In this document: piece by piece, positions 2,852 through 15,821 of the stretch
How positions within the stretch are numbered: the first letter of the stretch is position 1
Layout of the letters: each line of letters begins with the position of its first letter
DNA from: an uncultured bacterium
Lineage (GTDB): Bacteria; Acidobacteriota; HRBIN11; JAKEFK01
Assembly (NCBI GenBank): GCA_963777505.1
Contig: CAVZQN010000004.1
Location: 1,575,814 to 1,639,813, forward strand
Direction: 5' to 3'
DNA length: 64,000 nucleotides
Made by a program: the position numbers and the translations under genes
Notes under the pieces: generated by a model
What the model was told of the DNA's origin: nothing
What the model saw: the letters and a program-made list of their open reading frames with translations, nothing else
Database searches by the model: none

Positions 2852-5319
2852 CTACCCCCCAAATTCCAATCGTCGATCTGCCGGAAGACGATTGTACCCG
2901 TAGTTTCGGCGTATTAACTGTACAAAAAGCAGCACAGCGCATTGCTCTGCCACTCGAAAAGGTGGAAATTGATGCAAGAGTTGCCGGACAAATCGCGGAA
3001 GTTACAGTTCTGCAGTCTTTTCGAAACGAACATCAAGAAGCACTAGAAGCTGTATACATTTTTCCGCTTTCAGGAGGATCAGCAGTCAGCAGTTTCGAAA
3101 TGAAAGTAGGTTCACGTCTCCTTCGCGGCAAAGTGGAAGAGCGCGCACATGCGCGCCAGCAGTATGAAAATGCCATCCAGGATGGAAAGAGAGCAGCGTT
3201 GCTTGAACAAGAACGTGACGATGTTTTCACGCTTCAAGTTGGAAACATACTTCCTGGTGAACATGTTGAAATCAAGATCACCTATTCTGAACGTCTGCCA
3301 TTTTTTGAAAATGGAACGACTGAAATCCGGCTGCCGATGGTTGTTGCTCCAAGGTATGTTCCTGGAAGTCCGCTTGATTCCAGCGGAGTTGGGGATGGAA
3401 TTGAAGAAGATACCGATATTGTTCCAGATGCTTCCAGAATTTCTCCACCACGGTTGGCGAAAGGTTTTGATCCAAAAGTAGGCCTCAACATTCAGGTTGA
3501 ACTTTTGAGCGATGCAGCGATTCGAGAACTATCCTGCTCGCAACATGCGACCCGTACTTCAAATTCAGGAGGCAACGGAATCACTGTTTCGCTTTCCAGG
3601 ACCGACGAATTACTGAATCGTGATTTTGTGTTGCGATGGAACCTCGGTGAAAACAAAATCCAGACAGTTTTCCAAGGATACAAGTCAGAGCATGGCGATT
3701 ATTATGCGATGTTATCGATCCTTCCTCCGCAACTCGAACATCAATCCATTGCAGGACGTGATGTAGTTTTTATTGTGGATCGATCGGGATCGATGCGCGG
3801 TATAAAAATGGCTTCAGCATCCAAAGCATGTGCGATTTTGCTTTCAACGCTCGGACCCGCGGATCGTTTTGCAATTGCTTGCTTTAACACGGCCGTTAAA
3901 TGGTTTTATCCCAATGGTATGGATGGTCAGCGTTTTCTAACAGCCGATGAATCAGGTTTGAAACGTGGTGAAGCATTCTTGCGTGAAATAACAAGTGAAG
4001 GCGGTACAGAACTCGATCAAGCTCTGGAATCGGGTTTGGAAGTGATTCGCAGACGCAGTGATGACAGTACGCGTGTTCCAGTAGTTGTACTTTTGACCGA
4101 TGGACAAATCTCCGATGAGGCCCGCGTATTATCGCGGATCCAAAAAGAGGTTGGAGGTTCTCGTATTTTTACAGTTGGTATTGATACTGCAGTTAATCAT
4201 GGATTTTTGAGCCGTCTTGCTGCATTAGGAAAAGGAACATCCACATTCGTTGAACCAGGAGCGTCCTTAGATAATGCGCTACGGGCAATTAGCAGAGAAA
4301 TTGGAGCTCCAGTAATTGTAGATGTTAGCCTGAAGGATTTGGATTCAAACATAAATATGGAAACAATTTCACCCGCCCGAATTCCGGATCTATTTGCCGG
4401 ACGCTCCAGCGTCACTTTTTTTCAGATGAAGCAACCGGGGCGCATTCAGATCAATGGAAAATTCAGCGATGGAAGCAATTTCGAACAAACAATTTCTTCA
4501 GAAGTCACTCCGGTATCTGCAATTGCGCATTTGTGGGCTCGCGCACGAGTCAGGGATTTAGAAGATCAGTTCCGGCTCGAAAGTGGTCTGCAAGAGCAGA
4601 CAAAAAAGCAAATTATCGAAATTGCAATTCAGCATACATTACTGACGCGTTTTACAGCATTCGTAGTTGTTGATGAAAGCGAAGTTGTAAATCAGGATGG
4701 AACTCGAAGAAAAATTGTTCAACCAGTAGAAATGCCGGCCCAATGGGAAATGGATATGGGTTCTTCAATGCATATCACTGGAGCCATGGCGATGATGTCT
4801 TGTCCGCCGCCGCCGCAAGAAGCACGTGCTTCAGCACCAGTAGCGATGATGCAATTTGATGAAGGAACCAGACCTTCATCTTTATTGAAAGGGCTCTTCC
4901 GTAAACATCGCCGCGATGTGGATCCAAAACAGAAGCCTGCAGAATCAAAAGCGTTGAAAGATGCGGTCAAAGATTTTATGAATGCATTCGACAGCGTACA
5001 AAAATCCATAGAGTCAGGGCAGGTACCTTCAGGGAAACAACTTGAAAAGACACACAAGCAACTAATCAAGCTGATGACGGAGAGTGGTGAATATTCAGCG
5101 ATCAGACGTTTGCTGACTAGTATGGTCACAGAACTATTGACAGCTTTGCGAAGTCCAGGAATTGAAGTGTCAGCTTTGCGGAATATCTTGAATCAGAATA
5201 AGAAAACGATTGATGAAGCCTTTCGCGAAGTAAATGCAACGACAGCCGGCCCATTTCTGGGAATCAACCATTTGATCTCTGCGTCTTTGCGGTTTGTTGG
5301 CGAATTCTGTTACACTTGA
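2848..5319 (+). CDS. VIT-domain plus von Willebrand factor type A (vWA) domain protein, 823 aa, with Met/Pro-rich linker and C-terminal helical domain
   Basis: vWA MIDAS motif D-x-S-x-S in VVFIVDRSGSMRG, downstream LLTDGQISD, and TAFVVVDESEV motif typical of VIT-vWA proteins; N-terminal ~250 aa VIT-like; translationally coupled to the upstream HTH gene. Confidence 0.7.
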   Translation: MTTPQIPIVDLPEDDCTRSFGVLTVQKAAQRIALPLEKVEIDARVAGQIAEVTVLQSFRNEHQEALEAVYIFPLSGGSAVSSFEMKVGSRLLRGKVEERAHARQQYENAIQDGKRAALLEQERDDVFTLQVGNILPGEHVEIKITYSERLPFFENGTTEIRLPMVVAPRYVPGSPLDSSGVGDGIEEDTDIVPDASRISPPRLAKGFDPKVGLNIQVELLSDAAIRELSCSQHATRTSNSGGNGITVSLSRTDELLNRDFVLRWNLGENKIQTVFQGYKSEHGDYYAMLSILPPQLEHQSIAGRDVVFIVDRSGSMRGIKMASASKACAILLSTLGPADRFAIACFNTAVKWFYPNGMDGQRFLTADESGLKRGEAFLREITSEGGTELDQALESGLEVIRRRSDDSTRVPVVVLLTDGQISDEARVLSRIQKEVGGSRIFTVGIDTAVNHGFLSRLAALGKGTSTFVEPGASLDNALRAISREIGAPVIVDVSLKDLDSNINMETISPARIPDLFAGRSSVTFFQMKQPGRIQINGKFSDGSNFEQTISSEVTPVSAIAHLWARARVRDLEDQFRLESGLQEQTKKQIIEIAIQHTLLTRFTAFVVVDESEVVNQDGTRRKIVQPVEMPAQWEMDMGSSMHITGAMAMMSCPPPPQEARASAPVAMMQFDEGTRPSSLLKGLFRKHRRDVDPKQKPAESKALKDAVKDFMNAFDSVQKSIESGQVPSGKQLEKTHKQLIKLMTESGEYSAIRRLLTSMVTELLTALRSPGIEVSALRNILNQNKKTIDEAFREVNATTAGPFLGINHLISASLRFVGEFCYT

Positions 5320-5378
5320 AACGGACCAGACTCTACCGTTTCCGTTGTAAAACGACGCCACATCCTTGCTGATTTTTT

Positions 5379-8300
5379 ATGCCTGATTACTTGAAAGAAG
5401 CCAGAAAAGCTGAAAAAGAAAAAATCTTTTCGAGAGCGGGCGAATTCTACCGGCTTGCTGGAGAAATCGATTCTGCTGTTGAAATGTACATGAAGGCAGA
5501 AGACTACATTCTCGCCGCTGGTCTCATGGAACAAAAAGGCAACTGGAGTGCTGCTGCAAATCTGTATGAACGCGGCAGACAATACCGCGATGCTGCCAAG
5601 ATTTACGAAAAAATTAAAGACTATCGTTCCGCCTTTTCAATGTATGAAAAGATCAACGATTATCCACGTGCTTCAGAAATGGCGGAAAAAGCGGAAGATT
5701 ATTTCAAAGCTGCTGTTATGGCTGAAGAAGCAAAAACATTGCAACGTGCAGCACAACTTTATATTCAAGCCAACCAATATCCACAAGCTGCAAGAATTCA
5801 TTACAAATTATTGCAACAACTTGTCGATCTCACTGAAAAAAGGTTTTTTCCAGATTATGAGGCGCAACTCGCGAAGCATGCGAATACAACGGCGATGCTT
5901 TACGAACGGATTAATGATCATGCAAAAGCAGCCTACTGTTATCAACTTGCAAGAAATCATAAGAAAGCTGCAGAGTCGTATCTTGCAGATCAGAAACCTG
6001 AGAAAGCTGCAGAGATCTATCACCAGCTAAAGAGCTACAACAAAGCATTTGAGATTTTGTCAGGACTCACTGACGTTTCAAACAAGCCTCTTTTCGCGGA
6101 TGTTTGTTACCAGTTAAAGAAATTTGATAAAGCTGCAACTTTATTTCAGCAGTGCGGAAATCTTGGCCGCGCTGCTGATGCCTGTGAACAGGCAAAGCTT
6201 TATAACATCGCAGCTAAGATTTATGAAGAACTAGGAAATTTCAAACGTGCTGCAGAAATGTGTTTGAAGGCAAATAATAAGATTCGAGCGGCTGAACTTT
6301 ATGAAAAGACAGGAAACTTCGGCAACTCCGCAATTTTGTATCAGCAGTCCGGACAAAATGAAAAGGCATTGGAAAGCTATCTTGCGATCGGGCGAAGAAT
6401 TCCTGCCGCCAAAATCGCTCTTCAAATAAAAGATGAAGATAGAGCTATCTTTTTGCTTCAGGCAATTAATCCAATGGAAGAAGAATATAGAGATGCTTGT
6501 GCACTTCTTGGTGTAATTTTCGCTGAAAGAGGAATGAGTTCAGCGGCTCAGCGCAAGTTCGAAGAAGCATTGGAACGCCCCACGCTTACGAAGACAAATT
6601 TGGACATCTATTTTGATCTTGCGATGCAGCAGGAAAAAATGGGGATGCGTGCAGAAGCGGCCGACTTGTATGAGCGGATTCTTTCTGTGGATTTTTCGCA
6701 CAAGGAAGCTTCACGCCGCCTTGAAGAGTTACGAAGATCGGCTGTTTACCATATTCCGGATACATTTTACGTGCCCCAGCCTTCAGAAAGTGTCGAAAAC
6801 ATTCAGACATCCGGACAACCTCGAATTGTGGCATCGCGTTATGAGTTGGTGGAAGAAATGATTCATGATGCTTCGGGGAAAGTATATAAAGCCAGCGATC
6901 AATTTTTTCAACGTCCTGTCATGATCCGGATTCTTCCGAAGCAGGATCAAAATCTTACACAGGTGATTCTAAAATGCACTCAACTTTCATCGGCACTCAA
7001 CCACAATAACATTCTCGCAATTTATGATGGTGGGAAAGATAAAGATGATTACTTTGTTTGTACCGAATATGTAGACGGTCAAACTCTGCGGCAGTATCTT
7101 TCGGATCATTCTTTGAATATTCAGGAAGTTGTTCAAATTGCGCAACAGATTATTTTGGCCCTTGCGTATGTTCATAAGAAGGGTCTAATTCATGGAAATC
7201 TGACGCCGGAAAATATTTATATTGCAGCCGACAAAAGTGTAAAGGTCACTAATTTTGGAAATCTTGCAGTATGGGAAAAACAAAATGCGGCTGTTGTTAA
7301 GCAATACTTAAGTCCGGAACAGCTTACGGATCAGACTTCTGATGAGCGAAGTGACGTCTATTCGTTCGGGATTATTTTGTATGAGCTTGCCTATGGCAAT
7401 CCTCCTTTTTCGGGCGTGGATGTAGAACAACAACATTTGAGTGCTCTTCCTGTATTTGAAGAAACTCCTTTACACACTGTCCCGGATTTTCTGATCCGAA
7501 TTATGAAGAAGAGCCTTGCAAAGGATCGAAACAGACGTTACGCAAATGCGGATGAAATCCAAAATGAGTTTGAAACACCGGGAATCACACCAGGCGTTGT
7601 TATCAATGGCAGATATGAAATTGTCCGTGAACTTGGCGAAGGCGGTATGGGAAATGTTTATCAAGCGCGGGACAGGGACCTGGATGAAATCGTTGCATTA
7701 AAAATGTTGAAGGGGGAGATCGGCGGTGATCCTGATATGCTTCAACGTTTCATTCGTGAAATCAAAGTCGCAAGAATGATTGCTCATCCAAATGTAGTAC
7801 GCGTTTTTGATACCGGGACATACGAAGCAAATCGATACATAACGATGGAATATATCGATGGCATCAGTTTTGACCGATGGATCGATCAATCTAGAGAGAT
7901 CGATCTGAAAACTCGACTCAACATTTTGTTGAAAATCATTCAAGGCGTTCAAGCCGCTCATGCCCGTGGCATCGTTCATCGTGATTTGAAGCCTCAAAAT
8001 ATTTTGATTGATTCCGACTTCATTCCTCACATTCTCGATTTTGGAATTTCACGAGTACGAACTCACAAAGATAGTTCAACGACAGCCAAAATTGTACTTG
8101 GTTCACCAAAATATACATCTCCGGAACAAATCAGCGGACAGGAGGCGGATTATCGCAGCGATATTTATTCGCTTGGAGTCCTTACTTTCTACATGTTAAC
8201 GTTTCAAGAACCTTTCAGCGGAGATGATGTCCAGAGTATTTTGATGAAACACCTAACTTTGGAGCCTGCTTCGCCCCGCCACTTGAATCCTGAAATTCCA

Positions 8301-8420
8301 CTCTGGCTCGAAGATATTGTTCTTCGCGCGTTACGAAAAGATCCCGCCAAACGTTTCGAAAACCTCGATGAAATGCTCGCCGACCTCAAATTCGGCATCG
8401 ACTTCAAGCAAAACTCATAA
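5379..8420 (+). CDS. Multidomain signalling protein: N-terminal array of TPR-like ~19-residue helical repeats, a degenerate (pseudo)kinase domain, and a canonical Ser/Thr protein kinase domain (1013 aa)
   Basis: C-terminal domain has LGEGGMGNVY, VALKML, HRDLKPQNIL, DFGISR, SPKYTSPE. The preceding domain has VMIRIL (K to R), HGNLTPENIY (HRD to HGN) and TNFG (DFG to NFG). N-terminal 350 aa are periodic Y-x-x-A-A-x-x-Y-E-K-type repeats. Confidence 0.8.
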   Translation: MPDYLKEARKAEKEKIFSRAGEFYRLAGEIDSAVEMYMKAEDYILAAGLMEQKGNWSAAANLYERGRQYRDAAKIYEKIKDYRSAFSMYEKINDYPRASEMAEKAEDYFKAAVMAEEAKTLQRAAQLYIQANQYPQAARIHYKLLQQLVDLTEKRFFPDYEAQLAKHANTTAMLYERINDHAKAAYCYQLARNHKKAAESYLADQKPEKAAEIYHQLKSYNKAFEILSGLTDVSNKPLFADVCYQLKKFDKAATLFQQCGNLGRAADACEQAKLYNIAAKIYEELGNFKRAAEMCLKANNKIRAAELYEKTGNFGNSAILYQQSGQNEKALESYLAIGRRIPAAKIALQIKDEDRAIFLLQAINPMEEEYRDACALLGVIFAERGMSSAAQRKFEEALERPTLTKTNLDIYFDLAMQQEKMGMRAEAADLYERILSVDFSHKEASRRLEELRRSAVYHIPDTFYVPQPSESVENIQTSGQPRIVASRYELVEEMIHDASGKVYKASDQFFQRPVMIRILPKQDQNLTQVILKCTQLSSALNHNNILAIYDGGKDKDDYFVCTEYVDGQTLRQYLSDHSLNIQEVVQIAQQIILALAYVHKKGLIHGNLTPENIYIAADKSVKVTNFGNLAVWEKQNAAVVKQYLSPEQLTDQTSDERSDVYSFGIILYELAYGNPPFSGVDVEQQHLSALPVFEETPLHTVPDFLIRIMKKSLAKDRNRRYANADEIQNEFETPGITPGVVINGRYEIVRELGEGGMGNVYQARDRDLDEIVALKMLKGEIGGDPDMLQRFIREIKVARMIAHPNVVRVFDTGTYEANRYITMEYIDGISFDRWIDQSREIDLKTRLNILLKIIQGVQAAHARGIVHRDLKPQNILIDSDFIPHILDFGISRVRTHKDSSTTAKIVLGSPKYTSPEQISGQEADYRSDIYSLGVLTFYMLTFQEPFSGDDVQSILMKHLTLEPASPRHLNPEIPLWLEDIVLRALRKDPAKRFENLDEMLADLKFGIDFKQNS

Positions 8421-8482
8421 GATTTTAGATTTCAGATCACTGATTTCAGATTGAAATTGAAAAATTGAAGATTGCTAGAGCG
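8421..8482. repeat. Terminal inverted repeat R1 of IVS-like cassette (GATTTCAGATT-rich, ~55 bp)
   Basis: gattttagatttcagatcactgatttcagattgaaattgaaaaattgaagattg; its reverse complement matches R2 (8876-8935) at about 85% identity. Confidence 0.75.
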
Positions 8483-8487
8483 TTTTT

Positions 8488-8841
8488 TTATTTCGATAGC
8501 TTCGATGTTTTTATGGAAGATACGAATATGGAAACAAGTTCATTTCCCTCAACAATTAATGATCTTAATAAAGACTCATTAAGGATTTTGCATTCGATAA
8601 TAATCTCCATCCAATAAAGAGATTCATCCGCTTCTTCCAAAACAATTCCCAGTTTTGAGATAAAATCCACTTTTGAACGTGCTCGACAAGCTGCACGATA
8701 ATTTGCTCCCACGGACGTTCCGGACCGAAAAAGCTGATCACCCACGCGTCGTGCTTCATATGAATTCGGCAGAGCTCTGCATAGTCTTAGGATGCGCTTC
8801 CCGTATTCTTTTGTTCGTCTCTTCATCTCTTGTTGATTCAT
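8488..8841 (-). CDS. Four-helix-bundle protein (TIGR02436; 23S rRNA intervening-sequence protein family)
   Basis: SGTSVGANYRAACRARSKVDFISKLGIVLEEADESLYWMEII matches the family signature; start moved to internal ATG (8839-8841) because the track ORF 5' end runs into repeat R2; flanked by inverted repeats R1/R2. Confidence 0.75.
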   Translation of the reverse strand: MNQQEMKRRTKEYGKRILRLCRALPNSYEARRVGDQLFRSGTSVGANYRAACRARSKVDFISKLGIVLEEADESLYWMEIIIECKILNESLLRSLIVEGNELVSIFVSSIKTSKLSK

Positions 8842-8875
8842 ATACCAACCTTCTCTCAATCTTTCAATCCTCAAT

Positions 8876-8935
8876 TTCAATCTGAAATCTAGAATCTGAA
8901 ATCTTAAATAATTGAACCGCAAAGTCACGGAGTTC
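8876..8935. repeat. Terminal inverted repeat R2 of IVS-like cassette
   Basis: caatctttcaatcctcaatttcaatctgaaatctagaatctgaaatcttaaataa is the reverse complement of R1. Confidence 0.75.
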
Positions 8936-8952
8936 TTTGCGTCTTTGCGGTT
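8915..8952. repeat. Hairpin formed by two inverted copies of the recurrent motif (AACCGCAAAG ... CTTTGCGGTT, 10-bp stem)
   Basis: aaccgcaaagtcacggagttctttgcgtctttgcggtt read directly; overlaps the 3' end of the DUF2851 CDS. Confidence 0.6.
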
Positions 8953-10388
8953 GGATTAAATTCGCAGCGGGAGCAGGAAGCATCGCGGTTATCGCAAAAG
9001 TCGTAAAAGAAGTGATGGAGCGCTTGTTGCCGGTGTGCGCTGTCAATCATGTTTCTTGCTTTCTCCGGGCTCCCAAACATCCGATGAACCATCAGACGTG
9101 TAATGCTGTTGTTAGGCAGTTTTGGATGACGTCTATAGATTGCATGGAGAGAATCTTCGAGCCCTCGTTGTGAAGTGAGCTCTGCATGCGCTAACAACAA
9201 TGGAAGCACGACATTTACGATCAGGATCCGCGCGCGATCCTTTCCGATCAATCTGCGAGGTGCGCTGAATTTGTGCTTATCGAATTGATAATGGTATGAC
9301 CAATACAAATGCGATGGACGTCCAAACAAGGCATTCCACGATTTGAGTATTTCGCGAATTCCGCGAGGCGATGGAAAAGGTTCGCCGATAGGGTGGAGTA
9401 ACAATGGAATGATTTGTCCAGAATGGTAATGAAAAAATGATGCAACAGCAGTGAGCCTGCGTGCAGGGAAGTTTGCCGGACGTGTACTTGAGGGATACCA
9501 ACAAAACCCGGTGAGTATTCGCGATTGAAAATGGGATTCGTGTTTATGCCAGTATTGAAAAAGCTCGTTTAGATACCACGACGTTTCAGGATCTTCCGGA
9601 GTTAAACGGATCTGTGATAAGTCTTCGATCAATCCCGCAGTACCAAGTAATATCGCAGCCATTGAATCGATACCGCGCCGACCCGCAAAATTGTAATGCA
9701 TCAATTCATCAATCGGAATTCTTTGGGCAAGCTCACGGAATGCATATCGAGATTGCTTATATCCCATGCCTTCCATGATGCCTTCATAAAAAGCTTGCTG
9801 AAATGTTTGCGATCGAAGTGCCGTCAGATATCGTTCCTTTTTTCGGCGCATTCGAAGATCGCCTGCTGAATCCAATATTCGTGTGATGGATAGTTCATCA
9901 TGCTCTTCCAGAAATCGTCTGCAAAGATGTACTTTGCTTCCTGCATGAAATGGAAATTCATGAATCGGCAATCGTGTCTGCAGCAGCCTTAACTCTTCCA
10001 TCAATGAATCTTTTAATTCCAGTTCAGGAACCGACTCTCCATTCTGTTTGATACATTCCGCGCCTGTGCTGTACAAAACAACGTGAAGAACAACGCTGTT
10101 GTAACGTGGATCCAGATGGTGCCGGTGTTGATACCATTCACCGCTGCTTAAATGAATTTCAACATCACCACACATCCGTTTTCCATCAACAAACAATTCT
10201 GCATTTCGAAAGTCCGGGCCTGCTTCAAGATTCCACCAACCTGGCGATGATATCGATAACGCTGTGCCGTTCAGGCGCAATTGTTTCCGGAAGAGTTGTT
10301 CAGACCAGATGCAATGGATTAAACGTTCAAGGACGCGTTCGCGTCCACCATAGGGGTTTTGCGATTCGCAGACGAGATAAGGTTCCAT
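8925..10388 (-). CDS. DUF2851-family protein (487 aa)
   Basis: N-terminal ERLIHCIWSEQLF...PGWWNLEAGPDF...GDVEIHLSSGEWYQHRHHLDPRYNSVVLHVVL pattern recalled for DUF2851; assignment from memory only. Confidence 0.5.
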   Translation of the reverse strand: MEPYLVCESQNPYGGRERVLERLIHCIWSEQLFRKQLRLNGTALSISSPGWWNLEAGPDFRNAELFVDGKRMCGDVEIHLSSGEWYQHRHHLDPRYNSVVLHVVLYSTGAECIKQNGESVPELELKDSLMEELRLLQTRLPIHEFPFHAGSKVHLCRRFLEEHDELSITRILDSAGDLRMRRKKERYLTALRSQTFQQAFYEGIMEGMGYKQSRYAFRELAQRIPIDELMHYNFAGRRGIDSMAAILLGTAGLIEDLSQIRLTPEDPETSWYLNELFQYWHKHESHFQSRILTGFCWYPSSTRPANFPARRLTAVASFFHYHSGQIIPLLLHPIGEPFPSPRGIREILKSWNALFGRPSHLYWSYHYQFDKHKFSAPRRLIGKDRARILIVNVVLPLLLAHAELTSQRGLEDSLHAIYRRHPKLPNNSITRLMVHRMFGSPEKARNMIDSAHRQQALHHFFYDFCDNRDASCSRCEFNPTAKTQRTP

Positions 10389-10469
10389 CGTTTGCCTCCT
10401 GTTTTGGCAAACGGTGGAGGATGGTAGGAAGTTACCCGCACTAGGATTTTACCACAAAGACACGGCCTA

Positions 10470-10660
10470 CGGCCGCAATTTCAGATTTCAGATCTTAGAT
10501 TTCAGATTGAAATTGATGATTTTTGGATTTAAGTACAGGTTAATTCTACTTTATGTGAGCAGACCGAATTAAGGCTTAAAAAGAATCTAATAGCTTCTAT
10601 CAATCTTCAATCAAAAATTTCAATCTGAAATCTAAGATCTGAAATCTAAAATCTATTGGA
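10470..10660. mobile_element. MITE-like empty element: inverted repeats R3 (10470-10530) and R4 (10598-10660) of the same GATTTCAGATT family flanking a 76-bp non-coding core
   Basis: 33-bp core caatttcaatctgaaatctaagatctgaaatct is identical between rc(R3) and R4; no ORF between them; sits in the DUF2851 / radical-SAM intergenic region. Confidence 0.6.
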
Positions 10661-12023
10661 CTTGGAGTTTGGCGTAGGAGGGTGAACTGCCGCAGCTTTC
10701 AAACCATTCGAGGCCTTCACACACCATATCAAATTTCAGCCAGTACTGGCCGGGTGAGTTTACGGCGGGAACTTGAAAATCAAGACGCAATGCTTGTCCT
10801 GAAGGAAGAGCCTTTGGAAGCAAAGCACGTCCGAAGTTGCGGTTAATCATGCTACGGTTGCGATCTAACAATGAAATTCCGAGAGTGATATGTCTTCGAT
10901 TCGTGCGTGAAGTGTTTTTCCAGAGTGCCCCGCCGGCATTAAGAATTTCTGCGCTTGTAGTAAACGATTGGCCGGCTTTGACTTTCAATGCTGCAATCTC
11001 CGGACGTATTTCGGCTTTTAATGCTTTTTCGTGGATTGCATTTCCTAAAGCGCTCCAGATTTCATGCTGAATCTTTTCATATTCAGGGCGTCCCGGAACA
11101 AACCTTTCGGAAGCTGAATTTTCAGGATGATCTGTAATTTCCCAGCATAAACGATCGATTCCAAGTTCACCTGCAAGTTTTCGTGCAAGATCCATCTCTT
11201 CATCAGTGTCGTTCCAACGAAACAAAATGTAACGCCAGTTGATGAACGGCGTATCGGAGTTCAGTTCATGTTTGATTTCCACAAAGCGCTTCAGGATGCG
11301 CATCAATTTATCGAAATCGCCTCCACGCCTGTAACGCACATATGATTCTTGCATGGCCCCATCGATCGAGAAAGTAATTTCATCAATCCCTGATTTCGTA
11401 AGAGCGCGCAGTTTTTCATCCGTGTTTAGCAGCAATCCATTAGTGCTTGTAAAAAGATAAATCTGAGGATATCGAGATTTTGCATATTCGATCATTTCGA
11501 TCGCGCGTGGATGGATGAAACTTTCACCGTAATTAAAGAAGTCAATGCGCTGAAGTCCCGGTCCAAGCTCATCAATTACTTTTGTGAAAGTGTCATAATT
11601 CAAGAGCCGGATCGATCGCGTAAAATGGATTCCATTTTCATGATTGCAACAAGCTTCAAAACAGGAAAGATTGCAGGAGACACAAGGCTCTACGAATAAA
11701 CGCTGAGGCATATAGGCAAGCGAGGTGCCATCAGGTAATTTCACTGCAGGATCGGATGCAACTCCCATCAAGTTGCAATGGGTGCAAAGTACGGGATTAT
11801 TTTTATGCAGACCCTCACGCAATCCACGAAACACCGGACCATTCCAAATTTCTTTAATGCTCAAGATCGATGCATTGCCAGCCGGACGCTTTTTGAATGG
11901 ATCGGCACAACCACAAACGATCGTTCCATCTGACATTAATGTGACCGTCTCCCATGGCCATGTACAAAAGAAACGCTGGCCTGGTTGAAGATCGATTTGA
12001 GAGGGTTCTTCGGTTCCTATCAT
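10653..12023 (-). CDS. Radical-SAM-like protein with N-terminal SPASM-like Cys-rich domain and non-canonical Cys cluster (456 aa)
   Basis: N-terminus FFCTWPWETVTLMSDGTIVCGC...GNASILSIKEIWNGP...CTHCN resembles a SPASM/twitch domain. The core has CVSCNLSCFEACC (not CxxxCxxC) and FNYGESFIHP (GGEP-like). The C-terminal ~100 aa are unassigned. 4-nt overlap with the upstream deacetylase gene. Confidence 0.5.
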   Translation of the reverse strand: MIGTEEPSQIDLQPGQRFFCTWPWETVTLMSDGTIVCGCADPFKKRPAGNASILSIKEIWNGPVFRGLREGLHKNNPVLCTHCNLMGVASDPAVKLPDGTSLAYMPQRLFVEPCVSCNLSCFEACCNHENGIHFTRSIRLLNYDTFTKVIDELGPGLQRIDFFNYGESFIHPRAIEMIEYAKSRYPQIYLFTSTNGLLLNTDEKLRALTKSGIDEITFSIDGAMQESYVRYRRGGDFDKLMRILKRFVEIKHELNSDTPFINWRYILFRWNDTDEEMDLARKLAGELGIDRLCWEITDHPENSASERFVPGRPEYEKIQHEIWSALGNAIHEKALKAEIRPEIAALKVKAGQSFTTSAEILNAGGALWKNTSRTNRRHITLGISLLDRNRSMINRNFGRALLPKALPSGQALRLDFQVPAVNSPGQYWLKFDMVCEGLEWFESCGSSPSYAKLQVQ

Positions 12024-13414
12024 TTTTGAATTGTTGCTACGTTTGGCAGGAGATCCTGGCGATCGATGAGTTGACTTGCCGAAATAAGCTCATAACCGCG
12101 TTGACGAAAAGTCTGGATAATTTCGGGAAGCCATTTATCGACACGATCTTCCGGTTGACGTTGAGTTCCCAGGTGCATCAGTACAATAGCTCCATTTGTT
12201 TGAGCCGCTTCATTGTGCCCAAAACTTAAAATACGGTCTTTGATTAACATTGCAGGAAAATAATTTGCATAACTTGAATTTGGCACCCAATCCAGGCTGT
12301 CCATATTTTGGCGAGTCTTTGGATCGGATGTCCATGCAACGTGAACGAACCCGAGCTCGGCAGCCCAACGCCGAATTTCGAGATTATGCTCTCCGTAAGG
12401 CGCGCGCCACAAAGGCACCATTCGTTTGCCAGTCGTAAGATAGAACAATTCATCCGTTTTACGCAACTGCATCTGAAGATCTTCGCGCGTGAGCATAGGA
12501 GAAGTTTTCTGCTGTGAATCCGTTGCAAATGTTGTGAGATGGTCATGGCTGAAAGTATGATTGCCAACTTCATGCTCTGAAGCGATACGCCGCGACATTT
12601 CAGGAAATTTTTGAATGAACTCCCCGGTGAGGAAAATCGTGGAACGCACATTATGTTTTTTCAGTGCATTAAGAATCGATTCCGCTGAATTTGCCTCTGA
12701 GCCTCCGTCAAACGTGAGAACAATCTCTTTCCGATTGATGTTTCCGCGCGAAATATTGTCCGGTGAATTTTGGAAAAACTTCCAATTTGCGCTGTCAGAC
12801 TTTATTGAATCCTGATACAGAACCATAATGGCTGGAGAAAAATTTGAAGATCCATCATCATCATAGAATCGGGTCTGCAGTACATTTGCATGTTTCGTTA
12901 GCATGACTTTTGGGAAGCGATACAGCGTGTTGCGTGCTACCGTGCTTTCTACAAGTGATCCGTTCAGGTAAACGGCAACTACAGCATTTGCCGGAGCCGA
13001 GCCTTCTACCTCGACGAACTGAGAAGCGCTCTTCATCCCATTGATTGGCCGCGTAATATTAATCCCATCAGCCTTATCGTCAGCTTTTTCCAGGTCAATA
13101 GGCAGTGACGGTGTCATGAGATCAGGTTGTTGATGCTGACTTCCACCGGAATAAAAAGCGTCTGCAAGCAGGCCGAAATAAACAAAACCTGCCGCTAAAA
13201 CTACCAGCGAAGCATATATTGCATATCGACCATAATTGCGGGTGGGTGTAGCCGTCGCATTCTTTTGCAAATATGTTTTATGACAGAGGTCTCCGCAAAA
13301 TAAATGATGATCCAGGCTAATCTGGCATTGCGGACAAAGCGCGCGACCACATTCAAAGCACTTACGGCGCGCAATACGTGACGGATGTTTAAAACAAAAC
13401 CTAGGCTCGTTCAT
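12020..13414 (-). CDS. Polysaccharide deacetylase (CE4/NodB-homology) with N-terminal zinc-ribbon and one TM segment (464 aa)
   Basis: N-terminal CFECGRALCPQCQ...CGDLCH Cys pairs and a TM helix (YAIYASLVVLAAGFVYFGLL). NodB motifs LTFDGGSE, HTFSHDH and LWRAPYG. Confidence 0.7.
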   Translation of the reverse strand: MNEPRFCFKHPSRIARRKCFECGRALCPQCQISLDHHLFCGDLCHKTYLQKNATATPTRNYGRYAIYASLVVLAAGFVYFGLLADAFYSGGSQHQQPDLMTPSLPIDLEKADDKADGINITRPINGMKSASQFVEVEGSAPANAVVAVYLNGSLVESTVARNTLYRFPKVMLTKHANVLQTRFYDDDGSSNFSPAIMVLYQDSIKSDSANWKFFQNSPDNISRGNINRKEIVLTFDGGSEANSAESILNALKKHNVRSTIFLTGEFIQKFPEMSRRIASEHEVGNHTFSHDHLTTFATDSQQKTSPMLTREDLQMQLRKTDELFYLTTGKRMVPLWRAPYGEHNLEIRRWAAELGFVHVAWTSDPKTRQNMDSLDWVPNSSYANYFPAMLIKDRILSFGHNEAAQTNGAIVLMHLGTQRQPEDRVDKWLPEIIQTFRQRGYELISASQLIDRQDLLPNVATIQK

Positions 13415-13518
13415 CTCCGAAAAAGTCAGAACAAATTATGGGATGTTCATACTATCAATGTCAAACGCCTCGACGGACTATTGACTTGCCTCATTCCCGG
13501 GATTACCCTCAAAAAAAG

Positions 13519-14244
13519 ATGTATATTGTTTCACTTGTTTCATTCATGGTCATAATGTTTGCATGTGCAGGAAATCCCGATGGTTCAGGCCAAGCTGTCT
13601 CCGTGGAGGAACTTCGTAAATTGCGCCAAAACATGGTGAATCGTCAAATTATTGCCCGCGGCGTGAAAGATCCCCTTGTTCTGGAAGCGATGGATAAGGT
13701 GGAACGTCACCAATTCGTTTTGCCCGGTCAAGAACGTCAAGCTTATGATGATGGACCTCTTTCGATCGGTGAAGGCCAAACAATCTCTCAACCTTATATC
13801 GTTGCAATTATGACCGAGCTTGCGAAAATTGGTCCGGAATCAAAAGTTCTTGAAATTGGAACAGGTTCCGGCTATCAAGCTGCAATTCTTGGAGAGATTG
13901 CTAAGGAAGTTTATTCCATTGAAATCATTGAATCGCTAGGTTTGCGTTCGCAAAACCTTTTGCAACGTCTTGGTTATGAAAATGTGAAAGTTCGAATTGG
14001 TGATGGTTATAAGGGTTGGCCGGATGAAGCACCTTTTGATGCGATTGTAGTAACTGCTGCTCCGGATCATGTTCCTCAGCCGCTTGTTGATCAACTAAAA
14101 ATCGGTGGACGCCTCGTGATTCCTGTTGGAGAACTTTATCAGGAACTTGAAGTCATCACTAAAACGGCTAAAGGCACGGAACGCAACAAAATTATTCCAG
14201 TGCGATTCGTCCCGATGACCGGCGAAGCTGAACAAGATAACTAA
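13519..14244 (+). CDS. pcm: Protein-L-isoaspartate O-methyltransferase
   Basis: ISQPYIVAIM, VLEIGTGSGYQAA and VVTAAPDHVPQPLVDQLKIGGRLVIPVG motifs; start moved to ATG at 13519 (signal-peptide-like MYIVSLVSFMVIMFACAG). Confidence 0.85.
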   Translation: MYIVSLVSFMVIMFACAGNPDGSGQAVSVEELRKLRQNMVNRQIIARGVKDPLVLEAMDKVERHQFVLPGQERQAYDDGPLSIGEGQTISQPYIVAIMTELAKIGPESKVLEIGTGSGYQAAILGEIAKEVYSIEIIESLGLRSQNLLQRLGYENVKVRIGDGYKGWPDEAPFDAIVVTAAPDHVPQPLVDQLKIGGRLVIPVGELYQELEVITKTAKGTERNKIIPVRFVPMTGEAEQDN

Positions 14245-14271
14245 AATCTCTGCGTCTTTGCGGTTTAATAA

Positions 14272-15351
14272 TCAAAAGTAAAGATGAATGCGGAACGTTA
14301 GCTCATCTGCATTCTGAATTTCATTTTGCGGAATGCTTTGATTGAAGCTGTAATACACTCCGACCTGTAAGAACGGAACGATAAAAGGTTCGACTCCAAC
14401 CAACACTCGATCGCGCTGATTTTCATCGATATCCCGATTTGGGTCAAGAAATTCATACGCAGCTTTGACATTCCAGCCATCCGTTATCAGGTAATTTACT
14501 TCAGCGTGTGCAACAAATTGTTCGCGATCAGCTTCATCGGGAATTTCGTCCTTCACAAGATCGACTTCACCAAGAAAAACGGCTTTGTACAATCGGAATC
14601 CACCCCACAAACCTGCTGCCGTGCGATCACCCAAATCGGATGGGTTGTACGATCCTGAGGCGCCGATTCTAAATGCATTCGCTGCATACGATACAGATCC
14701 AACGAATTGTTTTGAAGCATTGTTATCCAGGCTACTACCGGTGCCGTTTGTTGCGGAAGTTACAATTGAAAAAGGTCCAGGTTCAAAGCCGACTTCAACT
14801 CCCGCGTCAGGATTATTGAAATTAAATCCTGTTGCTTCGCGGATAAATGCGCGATCATCTTCAATTCGCAGGCCGTAAGGGAGAATAAAACGTCCGCCTT
14901 TGATCCATCCGTGCGCAGGCATCGCCTCGAACATCGCGAATATTTCACGACTCTGGACTCCGCCCGGCGCGACACTTTCATCAACATACAAAGAAAGCAT
15001 GTCTGGAATTGGTTTTACATGGAGATAAATATTTCCTTTGTCGGTTAGAAATGTATTTGCGGTGTTATCTTCAACGAAAGTGCTTTGATTCAAGAATCTG
15101 AAATCCCCACCCACTGAAAGATTTCCGTCTAGAATCGCCCAATAGTGTGGCACTTTTTTTTCACTCAGGTCGATTTTTTGCCAGGGAAGGGCTTGGGTTC
15201 CGTATCCAGATCCCATTACATTACGTTTACCGCCTCCGGTTCGATTCACATGACAGGCACTGCATTTGAGACCTTCACGAATCGCAAGATAAGGTTCCGA
15301 AAAAACAACGGTTGGACACAGAACGAACAGCAGCAAGATTATTCGTTTCAT
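14272..15351 (-). CDS. Outer-membrane beta-barrel protein with N-terminal CXXCH heme motif; candidate Cyc2-like fused cytochrome-porin
   Basis: Signal peptide MKRIILLLFVLCPTVVFS, then CSACH 12 aa into the mature protein, a glycine/aromatic-rich beta-strand-like body, and C-terminal ...TFRIHLYF (terminal Phe). Confidence 0.5.
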   Translation of the reverse strand: MKRIILLLFVLCPTVVFSEPYLAIREGLKCSACHVNRTGGGKRNVMGSGYGTQALPWQKIDLSEKKVPHYWAILDGNLSVGGDFRFLNQSTFVEDNTANTFLTDKGNIYLHVKPIPDMLSLYVDESVAPGGVQSREIFAMFEAMPAHGWIKGGRFILPYGLRIEDDRAFIREATGFNFNNPDAGVEVGFEPGPFSIVTSATNGTGSSLDNNASKQFVGSVSYAANAFRIGASGSYNPSDLGDRTAAGLWGGFRLYKAVFLGEVDLVKDEIPDEADREQFVAHAEVNYLITDGWNVKAAYEFLDPNRDIDENQRDRVLVGVEPFIVPFLQVGVYYSFNQSIPQNEIQNADELTFRIHLYF

Positions 15352-15362
15352 TCAGTTTTCCC

Positions 15363-15821
15363 TCAGTTGCGTTGGGCACCCTGGGAGATCCAAACGCGGA
15401 AAGCGTTAATGGTTTCTTGAGGCAATGGCGGAATATTTAATGGCATCTGAGCCCCTACAATATTCGGCACCCCTTCAAGTTTGTGAATTAAATAGCTGTT
15501 ATCCGGATCGCCTGGTCTTACTCGAAACAGTTCCGGTCTTTCAACTGATGCAACGTTTACCAAAGAATCGTAAGCATTGACTTCATCTAATCGCAGTCCT
15601 TGCGGAGCATTTGCACCGATATGACATGCAACACAAACCCTGTTAAAAACATTGGCCTGAATGTTTGTAAAGGTAGGAGGAAAAGTTACGGGCAAGTCTC
15701 CATTTCCAGAACCGACCGGATTGCCATTTTCATCGAGTCCATTTCCATTGCCCGCACATCCTGCAAGTAAAGCTAATAATGCGAAAACCGGCAAAACTCG
15801 AAGTAAATCTCTAAAAAACAC
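15363..15821 (-). CDS. Small monoheme c-type cytochrome lipoprotein
   Basis: Lipobox LLAGCAG, a Gly/Asn-rich linker, a single CVACH heme-binding motif and a downstream Met (GAQMP); probably GTG start; immediately upstream of the Cyc2-like gene on the same strand. Confidence 0.6.
   Translation of the reverse strand: MFFRDLLRVLPVFALLALLAGCAGNGNGLDENGNPVGSGNGDLPVTFPPTFTNIQANVFNRVCVACHIGANAPQGLRLDEVNAYDSLVNVASVERPELFRVRPGDPDNSYLIHKLEGVPNIVGAQMPLNIPPLPQETINAFRVWISQGAQRN

Follow-up and report, generated by a model that had tools for sequence, protein, structure and literature searches.

The window analysed here, a 64,000-nucleotide stretch of a contig from an uncultured acidobacterium (GenBank CAVZQN010000004.1, positions 1,575,814 to 1,639,813), carries on its minus strand two overlapping genes, one encoding a 464-aa bitopic deacetylase-family protein of the CE4 (NodB) type (12020..13414) and, downstream of it, one encoding a 456-aa radical S-adenosylmethionine (SAM) protein (10653..12023). 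We read the latter as a permuted radical-SAM enzyme, in which a twitch domain precedes the barrel core, an FW domain follows it and the radical cluster is held by a CX3CX4C loop, and which forms with the CE4 gene a clade-limited bicistron drawn from two independent families; we would put the probability of this reading at about 0.6. Both genes are evident as open reading frames (ORFs), and exact copies of both proteins lie on one 1.9-Mb metagenome contig in NCBI/ENA. Near-identical database copies are labelled just 'SPASM domain-containing protein' and 'polysaccharide deacetylase family protein'. Every homologue sharing 67-90% identity with the radical-SAM protein is 455-457 aa long and aligns with 100% coverage; given this uniformity, the start codon appears to be conserved rather than an artefact of ORF prediction.

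Domain architecture of the radical-SAM protein

The core of the protein (aa 105-300; 11124..11711, on the minus strand, as are all features of the pair given below) is modelled as a partial TIM barrel bearing a SAM motif of the GGE type, and matches the Pfam Radical_SAM model PF04055 over aa 114-250 (E 6.5e-12; 46.4 bits against a cut-off of 29.5). Radical-SAM enzymology has been built on the CX3CX2C loop, with SPASM and twitch domains usually found at the C terminus. The first-pass annotation of this DNA had proposed that the core cluster was not of this canonical CxxxCxxC form, and this holds: the string CVSCNLSCFEACC is present and resolves to C117-N-L-S-C121-F-E-A-C-C126 (11646..11675, coordinates verified by translation), a spacing of three and four residues. 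C117, C121 and C126 are invariant in 50 out of 50 family members and in all 83 superfamily representatives, one being taken from each 50%-identity cluster, whilst C114 and C125 are dispensable across homologues, relatives having V, A, G or S in place of the latter. The loop reads CX3CX4C in 40 of the representatives, CX3CX3C in seven and CX3CX2C in 36. The GGE-type motif, NYGE, is likewise well preserved (G166 in 83/83, E167 in 77/83), as are N195, G222, Y231 and F268. As the three cysteines and the SAM motifs are conserved as if under purifying selection, the site looks like that of a working enzyme rather than a dead one, and the gene product is read as a soluble radical-SAM enzyme that is very probably active.

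The stretched loop might instead misplace the unique iron, leaving a protein with an Fe-S or binding role but no radical chemistry. The departure from the canonical spacing and the low confidence with which the loop is modelled would fit such a pseudo-enzyme, and NCBIfam does contain pseudo-SAM/SPASM families, with TIGR04347 among the weak matches to this protein. However, the three cysteines are kept by every representative, the NYGE, TNG and SxDG motifs are conserved, and close relatives grade through CX3CX3C to the canonical CX3CX2C. Altered spacing is also tolerated in other radical-SAM enzymes, such as ThiC (CX2CX4C), HmdB (CX5CX2C) and QueE (CX14CX2C). Loss of radical chemistry is hence very unlikely.

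The domain in front of the barrel (aa 17-90; 11754..11975) matches the Pfam SPASM model PF13186 over the full length of the profile (aa 20-84, E 7e-9; 36.3 bits against a cut-off of 21.5), and its aa 17-84 correspond to positions 2-70 of the NCBIfam profile NF033640. The suggestion that a SPASM- or twitch-like cysteine cluster lies at the N terminus, and not in its usual C-terminal position, is thereby borne out; so is the broader assignment, in that the profiles place the N-terminal region with the SPASM/twitch domains and the core with the radical-SAM proteins, rather than in any other family or fold. Eight cysteines are invariant in the 50 family members: C20, C37, C39, C80 and C83 in this domain, in addition to the three of the radical-cluster loop. 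Amongst the 83 representatives, C20 is found in all 78 sequences ungapped at that position, C37 in 80, C80 in 82 and C83 in 83, and C39 in 47. Only C20, C37 (with or without C39), C80 and C83 of the full seven-cysteine SPASM set (CX9-15GX4C...CX2CX5CX3C...C) can be recognised: the domain has no cysteine after C83, and so no CX5CX3C second half. With four or five cysteines, and none beyond C83, it is on its motif content a twitch domain rather than a full SPASM, with four cysteine ligands predicted for one auxiliary cluster. This set fits the shorter twitch definition reportedly given by Grell, Goldman and Drennan in 2015.

The C-terminal region, which had been described as an unassigned domain of about 100 residues, extends to about 120 (aa 336-456; 10656..11018). 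It was correctly said to lack an assignment by profile, there being no Pfam match between the window protein and PF16158 (FW, or N_BRCA1_IG) at E values up to 1, but it can now be assigned by its modelled fold as an FW/NBR1-type beta-sandwich. The model matches the FW domain of PDB entry 4OLE with an E value of 3.8e-7, and in a homologue of 56% identity (P0035) PF16158 rises just above its threshold (28.9 against 28 bits). The fold is thus shared with the NBR1 and ILRUN domains (4OLE and 6VHI), without a significant Pfam match in the window protein; the sandwich is also similar in fold to the immunoglobulin (Ig)-like and carbohydrate-binding modules (CBM) of glycosidases. Bacterial FW domains have been noted near C termini before, and that of NBR1 binds a protein, MAP1B (PMC3357945). 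Binding of Ams1 by an FW domain is also reported (PMC9233695). No description of an FW domain fused to a radical-SAM enzyme was found in the searchable literature.

An AlphaFold2 model of the whole protein, built from 50 sequences, has a mean confidence (pLDDT) of 86.9 and a predicted template-modelling score (pTM) of 0.85. Its best match in Foldseek is BlsE (PDB 7VOB; E 2.8e-9), and it also resembles the solved structures of MoaA, GDGT-MAS, LIAS, PFL-AE, viperin, CteB, SkfB and SuiB. As judged from the model, such resemblances are generic and give no indication of the substrate. By sequence, the core is closest to TIGR04317, a radical-SAM maturase of a tungsten-cofactor oxidoreductase (E 8e-27; 94 bits against a cut-off of 380). 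Both TIGR04317 and BlsE have their domains in the canonical order, and it is the barrel alone that aligns with them, so that neither is informative with respect to substrate. No curated NCBIfam model claims the family, all such matches being far below their cut-offs.

The order of the domains can be understood through a second family of radical-SAM proteins. In the genome GCA_016191015.1 (JACPPM010000135.1; locus L004), a 612-aa member of the window family (8001-9839, plus strand) adjoins a 537-aa paralogue (10344-11957, minus strand), the two genes being convergent and approximately 500 bp apart. The paralogue has the order FW (54-159), radical-SAM core (180-352), twitch (458-522), and each of these has a homologous counterpart in the window protein: its core aligns over 188-352 with aa 114-292 of the query (E 8e-15), its C-terminal twitch over 458-509 with aa 19-72 (E 2e-7) and its N-terminal FW domain over 54-159 with aa 347-455 (E 4e-7). 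Since the same three modules are found in both cyclic orders, the window protein is, on the evidence of these alignments, a circular permutant of the FW-radical-SAM-twitch relatives, as the comparison with permuted proteins proposed in the first-pass annotation was intended to reveal. The paralogous family, which includes P0407, is small (about 30 relatives) and also uncharacterised, and differs in having, besides the other order, the canonical loop CPLKCIQC. The longer member at this locus has an N-terminal extension of around 170 aa without a Pfam match, and the two genes adjoin others of the lipopolysaccharide (LPS) heptose pathway, together with glycosyltransferase genes.

The swapped order is also apparent in a comparison with BtrN (PDB 4M7T), a twitch-domain radical-SAM dehydrogenase, residues 16-136 of which (the core) align with aa 97-220 of the query and residues 201-263 (the twitch) with aa 32-91. 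The twitch beta-hairpin and its CxxC align, although the match is weak (E 4e-4) and BtrN has its twitch at the C terminus, a CX3CX2C loop and no FW domain. An arrangement of twitch followed by radical-SAM core appears already to be a curated kind, since the twitch comes first in the NF033640 (N_Twi_rSAM) profile of 398 positions and one relative of the window protein, P0264, matches positions 2-308 of it colinearly. Membership of NF033640 itself was considered and rejected: 170 bits are required and the window protein reaches 47.8, and not one of the 83 representatives attains an E value of 1e-30. Relative to NF033640, the window family adds the C-terminal FW domain and, apparently, the CX3CX4C loop. 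A literature search on CX3CX3C radical-SAM proteins, N-terminal twitch or SPASM domains, circular permutation and NF033640 found nothing, which is weak evidence as subscription papers lay mostly outside its reach.

Distribution and possible roles of the family

The radical-SAM protein belongs, judging by homology searches, to a large family that is uncharacterised and for the most part acidobacterial. A word-indexed search returned more than 3376 homologues, and an exhaustive search gave 242 clusters at 50% identity with E values up to 1e-30, or 6099 with E values up to 1e-10. When one genome was scanned for each GTDB species, at least 492 species genomes encoded relatives; the best 80 of these 492 are mostly labelled as Acidobacteriota, mainly Vicinamibacterales, along with Aminicenantes and a few oddly labelled metagenome-assembled genomes (MAGs). 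Clustering the neighbourhoods of 85 loci seeded with the radical-SAM gene revealed no neighbouring gene conserved across lineages. Within the Vicinamibacterales, at least 28 loci (including L001, 8725-11362) have genes for an ECF sigma factor, a STAS protein and an 88-aa protein directly upstream of the radical-SAM orthologue. The 88-aa protein (MRSIKTTSG...YENDKLESYMRKL) is highly conserved and helical, and belongs to no Pfam family, having just sub-threshold coiled-coil matches; neither the window nor the loci of its close clade yielded a homologue of it.

These observations bear on whether the enzyme might be a protein or peptide maturase, in the manner of anSME or the sactipeptide synthases, with the FW domain recognising the substrate and the CE4 gene being an unrelated neighbour. 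The top NCBIfam matches to the core are to maturase families (TIGR04317, and TIGR04311 at 3e-21), CteB, SkfB and SuiB are among the structural matches, the documented function of FW domains is the binding of protein, and the conserved 88-aa ORF adjoins the radical-SAM gene in those Vicinamibacterales loci. However, every one of the NCBIfam matches falls far short of its cut-off. The 88-aa protein is conserved from end to end, looks helical and has no cysteine, making it unlike the precursor of a ribosomally synthesised and post-translationally modified peptide (RiPP); in any case no homologue of it turned up at the loci of the window's clade, and there is no small precursor-like ORF beside the window pair. 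A maturase role is therefore best regarded as unlikely. A 75-aa ORF beside P0035 was also considered as a RiPP precursor and discarded, being a GmhB-like fragment.

A more speculative role is suggested by the host phylum. The Vicinamibacterales correspond to subdivision 6 (SD6), and the radical-SAM family is abundant in them. Acidobacteria that make iso-diabolic acid and lipids of the branched glycerol dialkyl glycerol tetraether (brGDGT) type, including those of SD6, have no Mss homologues and few Tes homologues (PMC13159169). The window protein might conceivably be the missing acidobacterial enzyme that couples iso-fatty acids tail to tail to give iso-diabolic acid and such membrane-spanning lipids, but it has no hydrophobic segment, and no lipid genes were found near its locus; we consider this a long shot.

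The CE4 gene, its pairing and the surrounding locus

The upstream gene encodes a protein of four parts. At its N terminus is a double zinc finger resembling a B-box (aa 1-45; 13280..13414), recognised through the conservation of its cysteines and histidines and a weak match to zf-B_box (E 0.013). C7, H10, C19, C22, C27, C30, H37, C40 and C44 show complete or near-complete conservation across 49 homologues, and would be enough for two zinc sites. There follows a single transmembrane helix (aa 63-89; 13148..13228), with a Kyte-Doolittle maximum of 2.15 at aa 65-84; the AlphaFold2 model, which has a pLDDT of 86.9, shows a long helix over aa 59-89 and then a disordered acidic linker at aa 90-113. 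Because basic residues precede the helix, the zinc finger is predicted to be cytosolic. Beyond the linker is an Ig-like beta-sandwich (aa 116-203; 12806..13069), all-beta in the model with strands between 119 and 200, for which there is a weak NCBIfam match to the PamR RbmA-like model (aa 116-210). The final part is the NodB/CE4 catalytic domain (aa 226-452; 12059..12739), identified by its motifs, its fold and PF01522 (E 6e-26; 91.2 bits against a cut-off of 23.1). The earlier description of a membrane-anchored deacetylase with a cytoplasmic zinc domain thus agrees with this analysis, given the nine conserved cysteines and histidines between aa 7 and 44 and the single helix preceding the Ig-like and NodB domains. 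As the CE4 protein has one transmembrane helix and the radical-SAM protein none, the NodB domain would be expected to face outward and the radical-SAM enzyme to remain in the cytoplasm.

The NodB domain may not be catalytically conventional. The model matches BC1960, PdaA and BA3943 in Foldseek at E values of 1e-14 to 1e-16, with TMt scores of 0.8-0.89 to CE4 structures, and the window protein shares with these deacetylases (4L1G, 1W17 and 6HM9, respectively) both the fold and motifs 2 to 5 (MT2-MT5): H286-T-F-S-H290-D-H292, R337-A-P-Y, D372-x-x-D375-W and L-M-H414. The top structural match, however, is BA3943, which is a CE4 pseudo-enzyme. Canonical motif 1 (MT1) is a tandem Asp-Asp that supplies the catalytic base and a metal ligand (PMC10967932); the window protein instead has TFD236-G237, and 45 of the 49 homologues carry G at the second position, the other four carrying A. 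The zinc-finger CE4 family, seen mainly in Acidobacteriota, has TFDG or SFDA as its MT1 throughout. An extra histidine, H292 of HTFSHDH, is invariant in the same family, and together with the altered MT1, the zinc finger, the transmembrane helix and the Ig-like domain it sets the protein apart from the known CE4 enzymes. From these motifs, the family may use an alternative metal triad, or may be composed of pseudo-enzymes like BA3943.

The two genes were said to overlap by 4 nt, and the junction, read directly from the minus strand, is TTCAAAAATGATAGGA, in which bases 12020-12023 (ATGA) are common to the TGA stop codon of the CE4 gene and the ATG of the radical-SAM gene. The same gene order, with a divergent PCMT gene followed by CE4, radical-SAM and DUF2851 genes, recurs in six relatives (L002, L006, L007, L008, L009 and L088), and the ATGA overlap is kept in all of them. 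Their radical-SAM proteins are approximately 70-90% identical to that of the window where this was measured, and their CE4 proteins 52-79% identical. Five of these six are among the 85 loci seeded with the radical-SAM gene. In another locus, L003, the upstream gene (7413-7958) is reduced to a 181-aa stub consisting of the transmembrane and Ig-like segments, from which the zinc finger and NodB domain have been cleanly removed; the radical-SAM and DUF2851 genes are intact, but the former no longer overlaps the stub, being separated from it by 42 nt. In the other 79 seeded loci, no CE4 homologue was found within 8 kb. The zinc-finger CE4 architecture is, for its part, widespread on its own, and a CE4 homologue of 40% identity (P0173; L086 6001-8885, CP070701.1) overlaps stop to start with a different gene, encoding a phosphoglucomutase/phosphomannomutase (PGM/PMM). 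Conservation of the neighbourhood therefore extends to six close relatives and no further amongst the loci studied. On these comparisons the pair is best read as a lineage-specific operon that joins two families, each widespread independently of the other, and not as an obligate two-enzyme system. It serves as a cautionary case: a translational overlap conserved among a few relatives did not turn out to be the mark of a general functional pairing.

The proposal that the two proteins act together on a polysaccharide or peptide accordingly went unsupported, although a version of it merits consideration: both might belong to one pathway for an envelope polysaccharide or a glycan of the peptidoglycan type, the radical-SAM enzyme acting on a cytoplasmic sugar or lipid-linked precursor and the CE4 protein removing N-acetyl groups from the exported polymer. 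The ATGA overlap is retained by the six relatives, and the pair has a promoter-like site before it and a terminator-like hairpin after it. Radical-SAM enzymes that modify sugars (BlsE, DesII and BtrN) are among the best matches by structure and by PDB sequence, and the C-terminal sandwich resembles modules of glycosidases. Against this, the pairing is confined to one clade, the CE4 gene has been lost in L003 with the radical-SAM gene left intact, the remaining seeded loci lack a nearby CE4 gene, more remote CE4 homologues have different partner genes, such as that for PGM/PMM, and the membrane is predicted to separate one catalytic domain from the other. A common glycan pathway consequently seems rather unlikely.

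A number of points nevertheless weigh against the reading we prefer, that of a permuted enzyme in a clade-limited bicistron. The preservation of a four-base overlap whilst the CE4 proteins diverged to 52-79% identity could reflect a real partnership within the clade, and there are weak hints of a connection with glycans: the 56%-identical homologue P0035 lies among LPS heptose-pathway, GT9 and GT2 glycosyltransferase genes, a PMT_2/GT-C gene is found downstream in L001, and one of the 83 relatives is fused to GT1/Capsule_synth domains. The binding of both the cluster and SAM is a prediction from conservation alone, and the metal-free AlphaFold2 model treats the cluster loop poorly, with pLDDT below 50 at aa 118-124. 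No described radical-SAM protein with a CX3CX4C loop was found in the searchable literature, outside which most subscription papers lie. Finally, the taxonomic distribution depends upon the labels given to MAGs by their submitters.

The operon was also thought to be flanked by an element resembling a miniature inverted-repeat transposable element (MITE). A 175-nt inverted-repeat element of this kind (10478..10652, not assigned to a strand), with 44-nt arms that are 93% complementary, does abut the stop codon of the radical-SAM gene (10653-10655) at the 3' end of the pair, but there is none on the 5' side, and it is the DUF2851 gene that is flanked by copies. As RNA, the element is predicted to form a highly stable hairpin, with an energy of -68.7 kcal/mol (z = -10.3). 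The core of the inverted repeat is represented by four arms in the 64-kb window, compared to 0.01 expected, making up two copies of the element; the second, longer and gene-bearing copy (8420-8909) is 1.5 kb away, beyond DUF2851, and has the same termini. The spacer between the radical-SAM and DUF2851 genes is 264 nt in the window but 60-123 nt in relatives, and no match to the element was found in 88 related loci, including the orthologous spacers, nor in plasmids. As the spacer is longer here and the element is missing from its orthologues, the insertion appears to be recent. The gene in the longer copy (coding sequence approximately 8488-8841, minus strand) encodes a four-helix-bundle protein of the '23S rRNA intervening sequence protein' family (TIGR02436/PF05635), and is bracketed by 70-nt inverted repeats, the 175-nt copy being a gene-less derivative. 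This anatomy, of a stem and an S23p-type ORF, is that of an rRNA intervening sequence, but in intergenic DNA. It suggests that 8420-8909 and 10478-10652 are a mobile cassette and its MITE.

On the 5' side of the pair, a short divergent spacer separates it from the PCMT gene. The promoter-like site (13435..13464, minus strand), TTGACA-18-CATAAT with 11 of 12 consensus bases, is around 20 nt upstream of the CE4 start. It is no more than a match to the consensus; promoter-like sites in the region are no more numerous in total than expected from shuffled sequence. The terminator-like feature, likewise a pattern match only, is a GC-rich hairpin with a T-rich tail (10461..10477, minus strand), just past the MITE-like element. 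An Rfam scan of 8000-14500 detected no riboswitch or other known RNA, just sub-threshold matches of plant microRNA hairpins to the element itself.

Further from the pair, an ORF of 1013 aa (5379-8420, plus strand) has, from its translation, N-terminal TPR-like repeats and then two kinase-like regions, of which the first appears degenerate (HGNLTPEN for HRDLKPxN) and the second canonical (HRDLKPQN). In the other direction, 14272-15351 (minus strand) encodes a secreted protein of 359 aa with an N-terminal haem-type CSACH motif and no Pfam family, adjoined by a gene for a 152-aa lipoprotein (15363-15821, minus strand) with a CVACH motif and a weak PSCyt1 match. The 359-aa protein has a clear homologue in L003 (5581-6657), adjoining a 160-aa ORF (5090-5572).

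Proposed mechanism and significance

If the permuted protein is an active enzyme, its parts suggest how it might work. The twitch domain would hold a fully cysteine-ligated auxiliary [4Fe-4S] cluster through C20, C37, C80 and C83, with the clade-specific C39 in addition. The radical cluster, bound by C117, C121 and C126, would reductively cleave SAM, and a substrate lodged between barrel and twitch would lose a hydrogen to the resulting 5'-deoxyadenosyl radical, with an electron relayed by the auxiliary cluster. The FW domain could serve to dock a macromolecular substrate, whether protein or glycan. Taken further, these features could define an unstudied, mainly acidobacterial class of radical-SAM enzymes that arose by circular permutation, has a functional CX3CX4C loop and carries out on a macromolecule a reaction new to the radical-SAM families; we advance this only tentatively.

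The family forms a natural series among close homologues, in which the second spacing of the loop is two, three or four residues and the domains occur in both orders. The plasticity of the SAM-cluster loop, and the geometry of the radical cluster relative to the auxiliary one, are thereby made directly testable, a prospect that should interest radical-SAM enzymologists as well as researchers on Acidobacteriota. With members in hundreds of species of this dominant and poorly understood soil phylum, identification of the substrate would add a piece of conserved acidobacterial biology.

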